A stretch of DNA of 20,000 nt, taken from an uncultured virus (IMG/VR IMGVR_UViG_2541047319_000002). Lineage: Duplodnaviria > Heunggongvirae > Uroviricota > Caudoviricetes. A program made the position numbers and the translations under genes. Location: the IMG/VR virus record IMGVR_UViG_2541047319_000002; one strand, 5' to 3'. This document shows positions 4,163 through 13,291 of this stretch, one piece after another. Positions within the stretch are counted from its first letter, which is position 1, and each line of letters opens with the position of its first letter. The notes under the pieces were generated by a model, which saw only the letters and a program-made list of their open reading frames with translations, had not been told where the DNA came from and searched no databases.

Positions 4163-4711
4163 ATGAGTATAAATGTTAAAATAAAGAAATTAAGTCAAGA
4201 CACAATAATGCCATCTTATGCAAAAGAAGGTGATAGTGGAATAGATTTATATACACTAAAAGATACGGTGATTCCAGCCAAATCAGCAGTAGCAGTCTCT
4301 ACAGGTATAGCGTTGGAAATTCCGTTTGGATATGAAATGCAAATTAGACCTAGAAGCGGTATAAGCTTAAAAGGAATGTTATTTACAAGAGATGTAGAAG
4401 TCCTTTATGTAGACAGAGATAAATCATTTAAAGATGTAATTGTATGTGATAGAATAAAACCTAAAAAGCAAATGAGAAAAAGTTTTGTAGTATATCCAAC
4501 TGTGCGACTAGGTACGATAGATTCGGGATATAGAGGTGAAATTAAAATAATTACATATAATGAAGAGGATTTTGATATTTTAATTCCTAAACATACTAAA
4601 CTTGCACAAGGTGTGTTTCAACAAGTTCCAAGAGCTATTTTAAAAGTTGTAGATGAATTGACTAGCTCTGAAAGAGGTAATAATGGATTTGGAAGCACTG
4701 GTATAAGATAG
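4163..4711 (+). CDS. dut: Trimeric dUTPase with a large insertion
   Basis: Motifs SGIDL, RPRSG, GTIDSGYRGEI, KLAQ and RGNNGFGSTG. Confidence 0.95.
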   Translation: MSINVKIKKLSQDTIMPSYAKEGDSGIDLYTLKDTVIPAKSAVAVSTGIALEIPFGYEMQIRPRSGISLKGMLFTRDVEVLYVDRDKSFKDVIVCDRIKPKKQMRKSFVVYPTVRLGTIDSGYRGEIKIITYNEEDFDILIPKHTKLAQGVFQQVPRAILKVVDELTSSERGNNGFGSTGIR

Positions 4712-4719
4712 GAGGCTAT

Positions 4720-5379
4720 ATGTATACTATTAAAGATGTGATAGATGTATTGAAATCTACTAGAAACTGCAATCTAAAATGTAATGATTGTATATTAAAT
4801 AAAAGTATAGTTACAAATAAAATAGAAAAAACATTATGTTGGTGGCTAGAAGAAACAAGAAAATCTCTTAAGCTATCACATTCAAATATTGAATTTGATA
4901 AACAAATTGAAATACTAAAAGAAGTGAATGACATTATATTTGAATGTGAGGACAAAACTTGCAATAAGTGTATATTTGGCGAAGAAGTGAGTAATCTATA
5001 TAGTTCTTGTGATATATTAGAAAAGATATGTGATGAATTGAGCAAAAAAACATGTAAACTAATAGAAAAAATTAATTATTATCATGATTATACTTATGAA
5101 AAATTATATTGTTTAGAAAATGTTAAAACTGGAGAGAAATTTGCTGTTGAAGAAAATCAAATAAAGAGATATAATATCCTCAATACTAATTTTGGAGGTG
5201 CTAATATGTTTAAATATGATGATTATGTTAATTTGACAAATAGTTTAGAGTTACCAGAAGAAATTAGAAATAAATGTGTTAGAGTTGTAATGACATTGGA
5301 AAATATGCAAGATATTATGATAGTACATAAGTTCAAGACTTATGTTGTTAATGAAAAATACATTGAAAAAGTATCATAA
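4720..5379 (+). CDS. Hypothetical protein with two Cys-rich repeats
   Basis: Strong RBS AGGAGG; CNLKCNDC..LC and CEDKTCNKC..SC clusters. Confidence 0.7.
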   Translation: MYTIKDVIDVLKSTRNCNLKCNDCILNKSIVTNKIEKTLCWWLEETRKSLKLSHSNIEFDKQIEILKEVNDIIFECEDKTCNKCIFGEEVSNLYSSCDILEKICDELSKKTCKLIEKINYYHDYTYEKLYCLENVKTGEKFAVEENQIKRYNILNTNFGGANMFKYDDYVNLTNSLELPEEIRNKCVRVVMTLENMQDIMIVHKFKTYVVNEKYIEKVS

Positions 5380-5381
5380 AA

Positions 5382-5419
5382 ATAAAAAAGTCATCTATTA
5401 ATTTAGATGACTTTTTTAT
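5382..5419. terminator. Bidirectional intrinsic terminator between convergent genes
   Basis: ATAAAAAAGTCATCTA-TTAATT-TAGATGACTTTTTTAT, perfect 16-bp inverted repeat with A/T tails. Confidence 0.9.
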
Positions 5420-5466
5420 CTGTTAATAATATAATAGAAGTATTATTGAAAAAATAAAAGAACAAA

Positions 5467-6777
5467 TTAAAATCTATCACTTTTGAAAACTTCAAGTAAT
5501 TGTGGAATATTAACTCCGAATCCCTCTATTAATTTTTCTTTATTATATGAATCATCCCAACTAAAAGGCTTGATGGTATTTACAATTTTAGTTGAGGTTA
5601 ATTTGTTATATTTAGGTTTATTAGTTGCTATTGTTTCAAATAATATCTTAGCTCTAAAAATTTCAAATCTATAACCTTTTCCAGCTTTTTCAATATATTT
5701 AATTAAATTATTTACGCTTTCAGTAGAAGTATTTGCTGTTCTATATCCAAAATAGTTAAATATCTCTAAGTACCAACTATCAACTGTTTTTATCACCTCT
5801 TGGTAATATTTCATATTTTTAGGAACTGACAATTTCCATTTCTCATATATTTTAAAAGCATCTTCTTTATTTTGACATCCATAAATATCTCTAAATTGTT
5901 CCTTAAGCTCATATACTAATTTTAAATGTGGAAATTCATTGAATATCGTTTGCATATTCTGTATTTGTTCATCTTTTAATTCCTCTCTATTTTTTGATAG
6001 TAAAATTTTATCTTTTAATAGTTTTTTGCGTTGCTTAATTGTTAAAGTATCTTTAAAAGACTTTCTTTCTTTTTCTAGGGCATTTGTAATTAATTGTAAA
6101 ACATGAAATCTATCTATAATAATTTTTACCTTTGGTAATTCCTCATAAATTGCTTCTTTACAATGTTTGCACATATCAATTATTATGACTTCGATTTGTT
6201 TTTTATTAGGAAATTTATTTAAAAATGCTTTGATATCAGTTTTATTTCTAGTTGCTTGAATATCAAGAATTTTATGATGGACTACATCTATATATATAGC
6301 TCTTACTGAGTTCTTAAGATATAGTCCATTTATACTCAACACTATCGGGGTAGTGTAAACTATATTTTTTTCAAGTTCCTTCATATAAACTTCAAACACT
6401 CTTTTTACTGTGGTTGGTGAAACACTATATTCATCTGCAATACTGGAAAATGGTTTCTTAAGAGATTCTTTTTCTATCTGTTTTCTTAATCTAATAGTAA
6501 TTTTACCTCTTTCATCAATGCTTTTATATTTTTGATTGAATGTAGAATTACAATGTTTACATTTATATCTATAACTATGTATTTCTATTACTACATGTTT
6601 GTCAAAAATATTTAAATCCTTAACAGAACGTGTAGACTTTCCATGCTTATAATATTCAGTGCAACCACATTCATAACATATGGTGGGTTCTTTTTTAGGT
6701 TTAACAATTACAGTCATATCGTGTTCATTTATTATTGTATCAATAACTTCAAAATCTGGTAAATTTAATACATCCAT
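5467..6777 (-). CDS. ISL3-family transposase-like protein, first catalytic Asp substituted
   Basis: Zinc finger CYECG...CKHC, HTH, IIIDM, IDRFHV, T...ESVNN.IK and G.GY.FE.FRA motifs; LSING where LGIDE is expected. Confidence 0.9.
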   Translation of the reverse strand: MDVLNLPDFEVIDTIINEHDMTVIVKPKKEPTICYECGCTEYYKHGKSTRSVKDLNIFDKHVVIEIHSYRYKCKHCNSTFNQKYKSIDERGKITIRLRKQIEKESLKKPFSSIADEYSVSPTTVKRVFEVYMKELEKNIVYTTPIVLSINGLYLKNSVRAIYIDVVHHKILDIQATRNKTDIKAFLNKFPNKKQIEVIIIDMCKHCKEAIYEELPKVKIIIDRFHVLQLITNALEKERKSFKDTLTIKQRKKLLKDKILLSKNREELKDEQIQNMQTIFNEFPHLKLVYELKEQFRDIYGCQNKEDAFKIYEKWKLSVPKNMKYYQEVIKTVDSWYLEIFNYFGYRTANTSTESVNNLIKYIEKAGKGYRFEIFRAKILFETIATNKPKYNKLTSTKIVNTIKPFSWDDSYNKEKLIEGFGVNIPQLLEVFKSDRF

Positions 6778-6779
6778 TT

Positions 6780-7622
6780 TTATTCACATTCTTTAATTAG
6801 ATTAATAGCTGTTATCATTCTAATATTATATATAGTTTTTTTTGTATTTTGTAAATACCATTCTAAATAACTTCTATTTTCTTTATAAACATCATATGCT
6901 GTTTTACCTTTGTATTTTCCACTTGTAAAAATAATTTTTTTTGCATCATCAAGACTTATATCTTTAAAATAAGCTAATAAATTTTTTGATATATGAGGAT
7001 AAAATGTATCTAATAAATATTTTATGCAATTATAACTTTTAGTTCTTTCTGATGATGGATTGTAATTTAACTGATTAACACCAACACTTGAAAAGTTAAA
7101 TTCTTTACTGTTTAAATTTCCTGCATAATATGCAACACAATGCTCTAAATCAGTTTGCATTACATCATATATATATTCACCTGAGTATTTTGAGAAACAA
7201 GGAAATTTAACAGTTTTAGCCTTCTCTAGGGTGTCAACATTTTCTTCTTCTAATATTTTGGATTGTCTCTTTTCTTTAATATCCCAAATTAATGAATTTA
7301 AATATTCAAAGTCACTTAAGTGCTTATCAGCCCAAATATTAGCTTTTTCAAATCCTATTTCAAAAGATTCAACTTCTTCTTTTAAAATAGTCTCTTTTAA
7401 ATATTCGATATATAAGTAATATTTTTCATTCAGTTCTTTTTTACCATTATCTAAAAATTTAACAAATATATCTTCTTTTTTTACTCTAAAAGTAACTCTA
7501 TTTTTAGTAATCTTATAATGAGTATCACTATTTTTTGTACCTATTCTGTTTAGATAATTTATACCTGCTGCATCCTGTATTTCAATTTCAGGTACTTTTG
7601 TTGGTTTAAAATCAAGTTTCAT
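6780..7622 (-). CDS. Hypothetical protein with two F.GKYKG...Y..W repeats (DUF3820 / exonuclease X C-terminal-like)
   Basis: FPCFSKYSGEYIYDV and IFTSGKYKGKTAYDVYKENRSYLEWYL; RBS AAGGAGG. Confidence 0.7.
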   Translation of the reverse strand: MKLDFKPTKVPEIEIQDAAGINYLNRIGTKNSDTHYKITKNRVTFRVKKEDIFVKFLDNGKKELNEKYYLYIEYLKETILKEEVESFEIGFEKANIWADKHLSDFEYLNSLIWDIKEKRQSKILEEENVDTLEKAKTVKFPCFSKYSGEYIYDVMQTDLEHCVAYYAGNLNSKEFNFSSVGVNQLNYNPSSERTKSYNCIKYLLDTFYPHISKNLLAYFKDISLDDAKKIIFTSGKYKGKTAYDVYKENRSYLEWYLQNTKKTIYNIRMITAINLIKECE

Positions 7623-7662
7623 AGATATATCAACCTCCTTTTTATAATTTATTATATAAAAT

Positions 7663-7671
7663 ATTATACCA
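7663..7671 (-). promoter_or_regulatory. Extended -10 promoter for the 7622-5467 operon
   Basis: TGGTATAAT on the minus strand about 40 bp upstream of the start. Confidence 0.6.
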
Positions 7672-7710
7672 CATTTAAAGTTATATTTTCCACTATTAAA
7701 GTTGTTTTAT
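7669..7710. repeat. Two tandem imperfect 21-bp repeats (CCACnnTTAAAGTT core)
   Basis: CCACATTTAAAGTTATATTTT followed by CCACTATTAAAGTTGTTTTAT. Confidence 0.55.
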
Positions 7711-7900
7711 ATAATAAATTCCAGATTAACTCTTTACTATCTAATTATCCTAATACTTAATTAGAATTTAAAACTTATCAAAACGAAATGACCTTCTAAA
7801 TTCGATTTTAAGGCTTTATAAAAATCAATGCTTATAATTAGTCCTATTCAGAAATTCGATTGCTTAAAACGCAAAATATAAAAAATAATAAATTACTAGT

Positions 7901-7939
7901 ATAAGACATAGAATTGTGTATTCTATGTCTTATTTCTTT
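7901..7939 (+). terminator. Terminator-like hairpin upstream of the integrase
   Basis: ATAAGACATAGAAT-TGTGT-ATTCTATGTCTTAT, perfect 14-bp inverted repeat followed by TTCTTT. Confidence 0.6.
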
Positions 7940-8031
7940 ACAACTAAGTAATTTCAATAATTATATAAATAAAAGAATTAAAAAAGTCAGTTGAAAGTCA
8001 GCTAAAATGACTATTTTTTGCCTCCTCTGTA

Positions 8032-8040
8032 TGGTATAAT
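8032..8040 (+). promoter_or_regulatory. Extended -10 promoter of the integrase
   Basis: TGGTATAAT about 30 bp upstream of the ATG; RBS GGAGGG follows. Confidence 0.6.
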
Positions 8041-8071
8041 AAGTATATGAATTTTCATAGGAGGGATAACC

Positions 8072-9184
8072 ATGAACGCTTTTATAAGAAAAAGAAATAA
8101 AAATTATGTAGTGTACTTAGAATTTAGAGATGATGAATCAGGAAAAAGAAAACAAAAAAATATGGGAGCATTTGATAAAAAAAGAGATGCTAATAAAAGA
8201 TTGGCTGAAGTTAAGGACAGTATATATAAAGATAGTTTTCTTGTGCCAAATGAAATCACTCTAGCTGGATTTTTATTAGACTTTCTTGAAAAATATAAAG
8301 ATAATATTTCAGCATCTACATATAAAAGCTATATTGCTATTTGTAAAAATCATATTAATCCTTCTATTGGAAAATATCGTCTTCAAGAGTTGAGAAATAT
8401 TCATATACAGAATTATATAGATGATTTAGCTGGTAACTTAAACCCTCAAACTATTAAAGTACATATAAATGTATTGAGACTTGCAATAAAGAGAGCTTAT
8501 AGAATTAAATTAATAAAAGAAAATATTATAGATGGAATAGAAAGTCCAAGAATTAAAAAATTTAAAAATGAAATTTATGATAAAGAGCAGATGCTAAAAT
8601 TATTAGAAGTAGCTAAAGGAACTAATCTTGAGCTTCCTATTAGTTTGGCTATAGGTCTAGGATTGAGACTTTCAGAAGTTTTGGGATTAACTTGGGATAA
8701 TATTGATTTTGATGAAAATACAATAACAGTAAATAAGATAACTAGTAGATTAGATGGTTCTGTTATACTTAAAGAGCCAAAGACAGAAAGCTCTGTTAGA
8801 AAAATATTTGCACCAATAGAGCTTATGAATTTACTAAAAAATTATAGGCTGGAGCAGAATAAGAAGTTATTGAGAAGTATTGTTAGAAATGAATATAACT
8901 TACTATTTTTTGATAGAAAAGGGAATCCAATTGCTGAAGATGTAATGAGTAAGAAATTTAGAAAATTCTTAGAGAATAATGACTTGCCTCATATTAGATT
9001 TCATGACTTAAGACATTCGCACGTTACTTTACTTATAAATTCTAAAGTACCTATAAAAGTTATATCTGAAAGGGTAGGACATTCAAATATTAATACTACT
9101 CTTAATGTATATTCTCATGTACTTAAAGAAATGGACAAAGAAGCTTCTGATAGAATATCTGAAAACTTATTTAAGGCTAATTAA
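8072..9184 (+). CDS. int: Tyrosine integrase with N-terminal arm-binding domain
   Basis: GLRLSE, EPKT, FHDLRH, VGHS and NVYSH catalytic motifs; N-terminal GKRKQK...F..KRDA arm-type domain. Confidence 0.95.
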   Translation: MNAFIRKRNKNYVVYLEFRDDESGKRKQKNMGAFDKKRDANKRLAEVKDSIYKDSFLVPNEITLAGFLLDFLEKYKDNISASTYKSYIAICKNHINPSIGKYRLQELRNIHIQNYIDDLAGNLNPQTIKVHINVLRLAIKRAYRIKLIKENIIDGIESPRIKKFKNEIYDKEQMLKLLEVAKGTNLELPISLAIGLGLRLSEVLGLTWDNIDFDENTITVNKITSRLDGSVILKEPKTESSVRKIFAPIELMNLLKNYRLEQNKKLLRSIVRNEYNLLFFDRKGNPIAEDVMSKKFRKFLENNDLPHIRFHDLRHSHVTLLINSKVPIKVISERVGHSNINTTLNVYSHVLKEMDKEASDRISENLFKAN

Positions 9185-9321
9185 TAATTATCATCAATAA
9201 ATACAAAATTAATAATAAAAGCAAAGGTATAAACATAAAGGGGAATTTTTACAAAGCCTTAGAATGGCATATAGAGCGTCAGATTTTAGAAGATATTAAA
9301 ATTTTATATTTCCAATATTTA

Positions 9322-11711: not shown

Positions 11712-12482
11712 TTGAGTAGGTATTCTCCTCAAACAAAATATTTTGAAATAGCAGTTAAGTTTAAAAAAGTTAACACATTTTTATTTTGGGTATTTTTTAT
11801 TTTATCAATAATATTCACCTTTCAAAATAATAATAATTTAATAACTTGTTTTAGTATTATCTCTCTTATAATACTAAACATGCTTGATATCTTTATTTGT
11901 AACTATCAAGAAAAAGGAGAATCTAAGAGAAGGAATGATTTTATTGACAACTCATTTGATTGTAAATATTCTACACATAACTCAATAGAATATTATGATA
12001 ATGATGAAATACATTATGGATTATATAAAGCTCTTGTCAATGTATATCAAAATGCTTTTTTCTCTAAAGAAATTTTATCTTATACAAGAAAATTTATAAT
12101 AATAAAAAATGTAATACCATGTATGATAATAGTTATATTTTCATTTATAGGATTCTCAAATAGTAATTTTGCTTTGCCTATATTGCAATTATTTTTCTCA
12201 AAATATTTTATATTAGACTTAATAAATACTTCTGGATATTTAAAAAATGTAGAATCGGTATTTGATAGCATAACAGATATGTTTGAGACTGGTCTGGTTG
12301 CAAAAAAAGATAACAAGGTAGAATCTAAAATAATAAAAGTTTTAATAAACTATGAAACTAATATCTCTAGTTCAAAGATATTTTTAAATTCTAAAGTATA
12401 TAAAAAAATGAACCCTGAATTAACAGGAGAATGGGATAAAATAAAAAAAAGATATAATATAAAAGAGGTGTCAAATATTTGA
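11712..12482 (+). CDS. Four-transmembrane CBASS-type effector (SMODS-associated 4TM, Cap16-like)
   Basis: Two pairs of hydrophobic helices separated by a soluble segment; TTG start after GAGG; stop overlaps the CD-NTase start. Confidence 0.72.
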   Translation: MSRYSPQTKYFEIAVKFKKVNTFLFWVFFILSIIFTFQNNNNLITCFSIISLIILNMLDIFICNYQEKGESKRRNDFIDNSFDCKYSTHNSIEYYDNDEIHYGLYKALVNVYQNAFFSKEILSYTRKFIIIKNVIPCMIIVIFSFIGFSNSNFALPILQLFFSKYFILDLINTSGYLKNVESVFDSITDMFETGLVAKKDNKVESKIIKVLINYETNISSSKIFLNSKVYKKMNPELTGEWDKIKKRYNIKEVSNI

Positions 12483-13291
12483 GTGTAAATAGTTATTTAG
12501 AAAATCTATCTCATGAATTAATAATAAGAGATAATGAAAAGGAAAATATAAAAAAATCAATAGAAGTTATTAAGAGTAGGTTAAAATCATATTTTGGAAA
12601 CAATATTGTAGAAACATTTTGTTTTGGCTCTTATACCAGAGGAACTATGCTGCCTAGAAAAGTAAATGAAAATTCGGATGTAGATTACATGGTAGTTTTT
12701 TCAAATAGTTTTTTATATGCTCCACAGACTTTACTAAATAAACTTAGAGATTTTGTGAGAACATATTACTCTAAGTCTGAAATATACCAGTCTAATCCAA
12801 CAATAGTCTTAGAGTTGAATCATATAAAATTTGAATTAGTTCCAGCATATTCTAATAATATGTATCTTTGGCAAGAAAATCACTATAGAATACCTGCAAA
12901 AGCCTCTAATTATAACGACTGGATAGATACATGTCCAGATGATATTAATAGTAGATTGACTAGACTAAATGTTGAATCAAATAATAAATTAAAACCTGCA
13001 ATACGAATAATTAAATATTGGAATTCTTTAAACAATAATGTTTATAGTTCATATGAACTTGAAAGTGCAATTTTAGAAAATATGCATTGTTATTGGAGAA
13101 CATCTATTCAGGATTATTTTACAGCTATAACAGAATCTTTAATTTATAATTTCGGTACACCATCATGGAAGGTTGATAAAATCTCTTCTCTTAAAAAATG
13201 GTATAATCATGCATTAAAAGAAGAATATATTTGGAGAAATTATATACAATCTAATTTATATATGGAAAATATTTTACCTTCAATAAAATAA
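12479..13291 (+). CDS. SMODS-domain nucleotidyltransferase (cGAS/DncV-like CD-NTase)
   Basis: FGSYTRGT, SDVDY, FELVPA, W..T.P, K..IR..KYWN and SYELE motifs. Confidence 0.9.
   Translation: MSVNSYLENLSHELIIRDNEKENIKKSIEVIKSRLKSYFGNNIVETFCFGSYTRGTMLPRKVNENSDVDYMVVFSNSFLYAPQTLLNKLRDFVRTYYSKSEIYQSNPTIVLELNHIKFELVPAYSNNMYLWQENHYRIPAKASNYNDWIDTCPDDINSRLTRLNVESNNKLKPAIRIIKYWNSLNNNVYSSYELESAILENMHCYWRTSIQDYFTAITESLIYNFGTPSWKVDKISSLKKWYNHALKEEYIWRNYIQSNLYMENILPSIK

Follow-up and report, generated by a model that had tools for sequence, protein, structure and literature searches.

What is a full-length ISL3 transposase, altered at its first catalytic motif, doing as the second gene of a two-gene unit in a phage genome? 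The window analyzed here, a stretch of 20,000 nucleotides from an uncultured virus of the Caudoviricetes (IMG/VR IMGVR_UViG_2541047319_000002), presents this question, and the initial annotation offered two answers, namely a transposase repurposed as a DNA-binding, regulatory or defence factor acting with its partner, or a transporter IS that has become immobile and contains a passenger gene. Comparison with active relatives indicates that the cassette is very probably an immobilised, phage-resident and cargo-carrying ISL3 element, the second of these answers, which the relatives' layout and the homology of the ends support directly. That the dead transposase also persists as an autorepressor of the cassette promoter is the reading we favour by a narrow margin over doubt, and it is drawn from patterns of conservation.

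The transposase, its cargo and the phage slot

The 436-aa ORF scores over the cut-off with three Pfam models, DDE_Tnp_ISL3, Zn_ribbon_ISL3 and HTH_Tnp_ISL3, in agreement with the zinc finger and HTH read from the letters alone, and the 2-bp gap to the 280-aa ORF is likewise as first described. The codons AAT GGA at 6330-6325 give SING where positions 150-151 are D and E in 40/40 aligned homologues (40 taken from 67 found), leaving N150 in the window, and strand 146-154 holds no acidic residue. The second Asp and the Glu, D201 and E353, are retained as claimed, together with D222 and H225. AAT GGA had been derived from GAT GAA, but three active relatives encode the motif as GAC GAA/GAG, and the damage is wider than a two-codon change, as 13 of 34 columns conserved in the RNase H core are altered. 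The fold is intact in the predicted structure, for which the best Foldseek match is the ISCth4 transposase (E 2e-10), an active enzyme of IS256/Mutator type with 16% identity; a sequence search found no solved ISL3 structure. The N-terminal domains of the ISCth4 transposase reportedly read its inverted repeats (IRs).

Among the Clostridioides difficile cluster members listed (the best 15 of 31, the 15th being a 170-aa fragment), SING is present in 14/14 near-complete alleles, 13 of which are full length and represent 593 of 594 contigs, while one is C-terminally truncated. Judged by these residues, catalysis is lost in all sampled C. difficile alleles. Set against the active ISL3 family, the cassette has the family domains, lacks the intact D-D-E triad and occupies a single site instead of several; it is no longer an active ISL3 element but derives from an active ISL3 ancestor.

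The structure model of the cargo protein (pLDDT 90) displays a beta-rich domain and two small repeats. The two GKYKG-type domains of the initial annotation are thus borne out by the model as repeats, although Pfam ExoX-like_C matches the second only and the first reads FSKYSG. Foldseek returned no fold match for the model at E<=0.001, and no nuclease domain was detected in the 280-aa protein, which does not qualify as DEDDh. The GenBank label 'Exodeoxyribonuclease X' is unsupported, as the match is limited to the 28-aa ExoX-like_C motif with no fold match. The protein most likely binds nucleic acid via its repeats. Its homologues share 48-78% identity, and one of them (74%; L016/L025) is free-standing in another prophage, without ISL3 and behind a similar leader, with a dN/dS of 0.38 between the two genes. 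Relatives number none in genome_contigs and two in metagenome_contigs, a weak search found no longer fused form, and matches in the atlas all lie below 0.9.

C. difficile phage-plasmids of the phiCD211/phiCDIF1296T type match the window at 99.8-100% over 4700-9300, and in GenBank the two cassette genes are labelled 'transposase' and 'Exodeoxyribonuclease X'; in the relevant passages of PMC5786514, a paper on such phages, mention is limited to 'multiple transposases'. The cassette fills a variable slot bounded by a backbone hairpin at 5382-5419 and by backbone DNA from ~7786, and homology to the backbone of other phages correspondingly stops at 5417-5442 on the right and resumes at 7786-7791 on the left. 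The terminator that the gene pair was proposed to share is a strong hairpin, but it is the phage backbone's own and is present in four phages without the cassette. All retrieved C. difficile copies lie at this one site, with a single copy in the one 133-kb genome examined. The search for empty sites that had been proposed gave no clean one, as the five sister phages examined all hold other genes in the slot, and the ISL3 end motif is absent from it in 5/5.

The slot (window 5420-7786) is an accessory-gene hotspot: in the sister phages L003, L004, L005, L008 and L010 it encodes cell-wall-binding proteins, a NERD nuclease or unassigned proteins of 252-303 aa. Further modules lie elsewhere in the window. 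A two-gene CBASS-like locus at 11712-13291 encodes a 4TM effector and a SMODS/oligonucleotide cyclase (PADLOC E-values 3e-42 and 6e-90) and is missing from the corresponding position of the phiCD211 record. A tyrosine integrase gene at 8072-9184 is bracketed by a 37-nt inverted repeat (7789-7825 / 9245-9281; 81% complementary), the left arm of which is kept in sister phages, and a Dam-type methyltransferase gene between 28-nt direct repeats (1808-1835 / 2666-2693; 96%) has the look of a swappable module.

Element ends and active relatives

The initial annotation saw no room for an IS end and no terminal inverted repeats, and a generic repeat search around the cassette likewise returned no IR pair. 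The ends are detectable only by comparison with relatives, which reveals a decayed left end at ~7662-7776, 5' of the partner gene and containing the promoter, together with a right end, likewise decayed, that spans ~5427-5466, each homologous to its counterpart in the relatives (Table 1). Since the left-end homology lies upstream of the partner gene, the partner is cargo within the element, and its position between the two end homologies is that of a passenger gene as defined for transporter IS (tIS; PMC9330008). The reported lack of a target duplication stands, as no 8-bp duplication is visible at the aligned ends; it has been lost together with the terminal GG/CC and the symmetry of the ends (best 11/24 in the window vs 19/24 in an active element).

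Table 1. Features of the ISL3 cassette and its border, in window coordinates
Feature	Position	Strand	Remarks
Decayed terminal inverted repeat, left end, GG lost	7753-7776	(-)	Alignable to the left terminus in active relatives; 13/21 conserved positions kept
Inner repeat site 1, IR-core copy over the -35 region; likely transposase operator (predicted)	7690-7703	(-)	Same site at +67 in active left ends
Inner repeat site 2, IR-core copy that occupies the promoter spacer as far as the extended -10; probable transposase operator (predicted)	7669-7682	(-)	
Sigma-A-type promoter, weak -35, TG-extended -10, within the left end	7663-7692	(-)	Recurs at this position in 14 active left ends
5' leader with ribosome-binding site, apparently acquired along with the cargo	7623-7655	(-)	Similar to the leader that precedes the free-standing homologue of L016
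Cargo gene, 280 aa, phrog_12402	6780-7622	(-)	Beta-rich N-domain, helical linker, two ExoX-like_C-type repeats
Full-length ISL3 transposase, 436 aa	5467-6777	(-)	First catalytic Asp lost (N150), RNase H core eroded, conservation kept in the HTH and C-terminal motif
Decayed right end, terminal CC lost, without target duplication	5427-5466	(-)	Homology to relatives
Bidirectional terminator-like hairpin	5382-5419	.	z about -7.6; phage backbone, just outside the element

The inner left end matches the relatives at 40 of 45 positions. The extended -10 promoter proposed for the gene pair is borne out by its recurrence in the active left ends; the promoter scan taken alone is weak, as it returned 31 promoter-like sites vs 24 expected. 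A 41-nt left-end search pattern, derived from the relatives and the window itself, occurs at 44 loci of viral_contigs, comprising 38 active termini, 6 of window type and 0 others. RNA covering the region was found in 7 runs of 2 studies, with contigs from four runs spanning 5514-7639, 5521-7789, 5575-7535, and 5521-6920 plus 6982-7639; two contigs from one study end at 7639. These contigs, which give no strand, start or level, are a weak hint of cassette transcription. A joint between 7259 and 7639 in the RNA, with 22 nt on one side, is regarded as chance.

A scan of viral_contigs recovered 41 loci, of which 6 are of window type and 35 are relatives at 54-64%, from gut phages. Conserved loss of the Asp and conserved linkage to the GKYKG gene, both of which the initial annotation proposed to look for, are absent here: GIDE is kept in 35/35 close relatives and the partner gene lies within 5 kb in 0/35. 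The relatives share an order of left end with promoter, whole phage gene or genes, transposase and right end. In 32/35 a left end precedes the transposase at a distance of 405-1264 nt; two were lost to contig ends, and L084 has none despite 4 kb of upstream sequence. The left end measures ~116 nt and bears a terminal IR, two inner IR-core copies and the TG-extended -10, and the right end lies ~40 nt past the transposase stop. The DNA preceding the transposase ATG is variable, being made up of whole ORFs, the last of which stops 0-71 nt before that ATG.

These elements move and exchange cargo. Perfect 8-bp duplications flank 23 of 30 complete elements (7 are without), and 32 elements with transposases 90-97% identical carry 14 cargo types (~9-10 of them unrelated) between 26 flank pairs, the same cargo being found at several sites. 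Some elements have an identical flank and different cargo, which suggests recombination between element copies. Several cargo genes have free-standing phage homologues, with the match spanning approximately from the RBS/start codon to the stop codon. New cargo most likely enters by recombination at short RBS/start-codon homology, and its entry is most likely filtered by the requirement of the transposase for an upstream message. No mobile copy carrying the window's cargo was found among the relatives, and a search of C. difficile phages and plasmids yielded no close relative that is active.

Pfam matched 12 of 20 cargo proteins from the relatives and assigned no family to 8. The matches include Tad2-like, Dam, PAPS reductase, Nuc_deoxyri_tr2, HNH, NUMOD, two HTH and YopX, while Lar was matched by one cargo over the cut-off and by two under it. 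Lar-like and methylase cargo recur in more distant elements. The cargo-element layout is repeated in 6/10 more distant loci and in 6/7 cultured-phage records, hand-picked from 53, with phages of Bacillus, Vibrio, Burkholderia and Caulobacter among them; three of these records carry an annotated methyltransferase as cargo. No element ends were found at L185, L188, L189, L193 or in phage LspM-01, and 39 ISL3 matches in genome_contigs (22-43%) were left out as too distant.

Several variants accompany these elements. Tandem-domain cargo resembling Tad2 (Thoeris anti-defence 2) is found at several sites (L075:4228-4740, L083, L088, L121 and L135), and in L079 and L121, which are one contig, the Tad2-like-carrying element sits inside a PAPS-reductase-like gene that is itself a homologue of other elements' cargo. 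Non-autonomous derivatives (L112, L147, L146 and L194) keep ends and cargo with an internally deleted transposase; the 8-bp duplications are perfect in L112, L147 and L194. Gut phages also hold a second ISL3 transposase that lacks IRs (L188:4001-5308, L189 and L193). Its GIDE and NAYTES motifs are intact, it has an upstream leader of its own, it occupies a single site, following a methyltransferase gene, and it possibly represents an independent domestication.

Decay, retention and the fate of the dead transposase

Homologues with DE, at varied loci and with IRs and duplications, had been named as the observation that would speak for recent decay. Such homologues exist, but the decay of the window copy is old and patterned, not fresh breakage. 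In a 32-sequence tree the window branch measures 0.41 vs 0.06 for a DDE-intact sister (~7x), and the window departs from 35/177 conserved columns vs 3/177 in the sister. The departures fall unevenly, on the core (13/34), the E-helix (8/36), the zinc-finger region (7/33), the HTH (1/26) and the C-terminus (0/11), with contrasts of p=0.03 for the HTH and p=0.007 for the core, each vs the rest. Distant active homologues show 20-40 departures, chiefly in the zinc finger and HTH. Part of the window's long branch may predate inactivation, and dN/dS to the relatives (0.13-0.15) is unreliable, with dS near saturation. A comparable division appears in the left end, where conserved non-promoter positions are kept at 21/22 in the inner sites vs 13/21 in the terminal IR (p=0.009), a retention that could be due in part to promoter function (UP element, spacer).

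The history that would best account for this pattern begins with an element carrying the 280-aa gene, which would have landed in the variable slot of the phage and there lost its termini and active site to decay. The dead transposase may then have continued to bind the two repeat sites across the -35 and spacer, limiting the two-gene message in the lysogen. By analogy, the ISL3 HTH presumably reads the inner repeat sites, and its preservation along with both sites would be explained if the protein binds there and limits transcription; as the sites span the -35 and spacer, bound transposase would block RNA polymerase. That the HTH and inner sites were retained while the active site and termini were lost is consistent with an accessory operon, now fixed, that the protein would autorepress. 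The domestication features observed are a fixed locus, a lost catalytic residue and an intact ORF, alongside polymorphism that is near-neutral.

That last feature is where the main rival, rather unlikely on our assessment, finds its footing. Here the cassette is the same immobilised cargo element, while the transposase is a functionless relic and selection acts on the cargo and promoter only. Ten DNA alleles hold 4 missense and 1 silent change in the transposase and none in the cargo, which for the transposase is close to neutral expectation, although the counts are tiny; alleles on 46-47 contigs alter the conserved S118 (HTH) and R296, another variant affects the conserved G368, and the truncated allele and the 35 lost columns point the same way. 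A relic is harder to reconcile with the uneven damage that spares the HTH, with the retained promoter-spacer bases that match the IR core, and with the lack of any stop or frameshift, since neutral decay to the window's level would be expected to yield 5.7-8.1 stops (P 0.0003-0.004), a test biased by ascertainment because the locus was flagged for being intact. Nor would the transposase frame, as that of the unit's last gene, be required to avoid polarity.

It is improbable that the dead transposase serves instead as an immunity factor, binding the ends of incoming active relatives or joining their transpososomes to block insertion. Active relatives do insert into phage genes, such as the PAPS-reductase gene noted above, and the conserved HTH and the want of a second copy in the 133-kb genome are compatible with this, but no such relative is at hand in C. 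difficile phages or plasmids, and a single genome without extra copies is unremarkable. Just as improbable, and if anything slightly more so, is a dedicated two-protein defence or regulation system in which cargo and dead transposase cooperate physically. The 2-bp coupling is tight, the linkage is stable in phiCD211-like phages, and sister phages use the slot for accessory genes, a NERD nuclease among them; against this, gaps of 0-1 nt are also seen with unrelated cargo in active elements, a homologue of the partner is free-standing and no close relative carries the partner. The defence proposal of the initial annotation gains nothing from PADLOC, which matched neither protein, and its repurposed transposase survives in the signs of retention as a DNA binder but not in a conserved pairing with the GKYKG gene (0/35). 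Continued mobility, through another acidic residue or a transposase in trans, is very improbable, for although D201, D222, H225, E353 and the predicted fold are kept, strand 146-154 offers no acidic residue, both termini lack GG/CC and symmetry, and all retrieved copies share one site.

Comparison with known systems and meaning

Passenger-carrying ISL3 elements are already known, as are IS boundaries marked in the record of Burkholderia phage Bcep22. ISPst2, as described in PMC6305408, has 24-bp IRs beginning GGGTAT, 8-bp AT-rich duplications and passengers inside its ends, so that ISPst2-like elements and the cassette clade share an ISL3 transposase, GGGTAT-type ends, an 8-bp duplication and internal passengers. 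The ISPst2 copies described there carry one passenger pair, an ArsR regulator and a permease, and reside on plasmids, whereas the clade described here is phage-resident and exchanges entire phage genes within a single slot, downstream of a promoter supplied by the element's end; the window copy differs further in being dead and fixed. In the Bcep22 record (AY349011), a 'putative insertion sequence boundary' is marked around two hypothetical genes and an ISL3 transposase, and the IRs and 8-bp duplication of this element were confirmed here. Unlike the clade, it is a lone element of DDE type, and it shares 33% identity with the close relatives.

In integrons, a fixed promoter drives interchangeable whole ORFs. 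The cassette clade likewise has a fixed promoter and interchangeable whole ORFs, a likeness of working and not of membership, as the element contains neither a tyrosine integrase nor an attC-like site, the cargo arrives with an RBS of its own, and its exchange is probably recombinational. The literature searched yielded no paper on a domesticated ISL3, nor on an ISL3 clade that resides in phages and has an exchangeable slot; the phiCD211 survey of Garneau 2018 and ISfinder lie outside that search and may describe parts.

Taken together, these elements may, on a tentative reading that we hold at somewhat less than an even chance, form a widespread phage-resident ISL3 clade that shuttles genes by means of an integron-like expression slot and a transposase-controlled promoter. 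As part of this same joint claim, whole phage genes (Tad2-like, Lar-like and DNA methyltransferases) would be captured at start/stop boundaries and spread between phages, and the phiCD211 copy would have become, through domestication, an accessory operon that is fixed and represses itself. Such elements offer a possible route for phages to reshuffle and re-express accessory and counter-defence genes, and candidate counter-defence proteins can be read directly from their cargo slot, where no Pfam family was assigned to 8 of the 20 proteins scanned. Small elements with defined ends are also tractable for the study of ISL3 transposition, the mechanism of which is described as unclear in the relevant passage of PMC10886379, and the window copy provides a testable case of a transposase turning repressor, predicted operator sites included.
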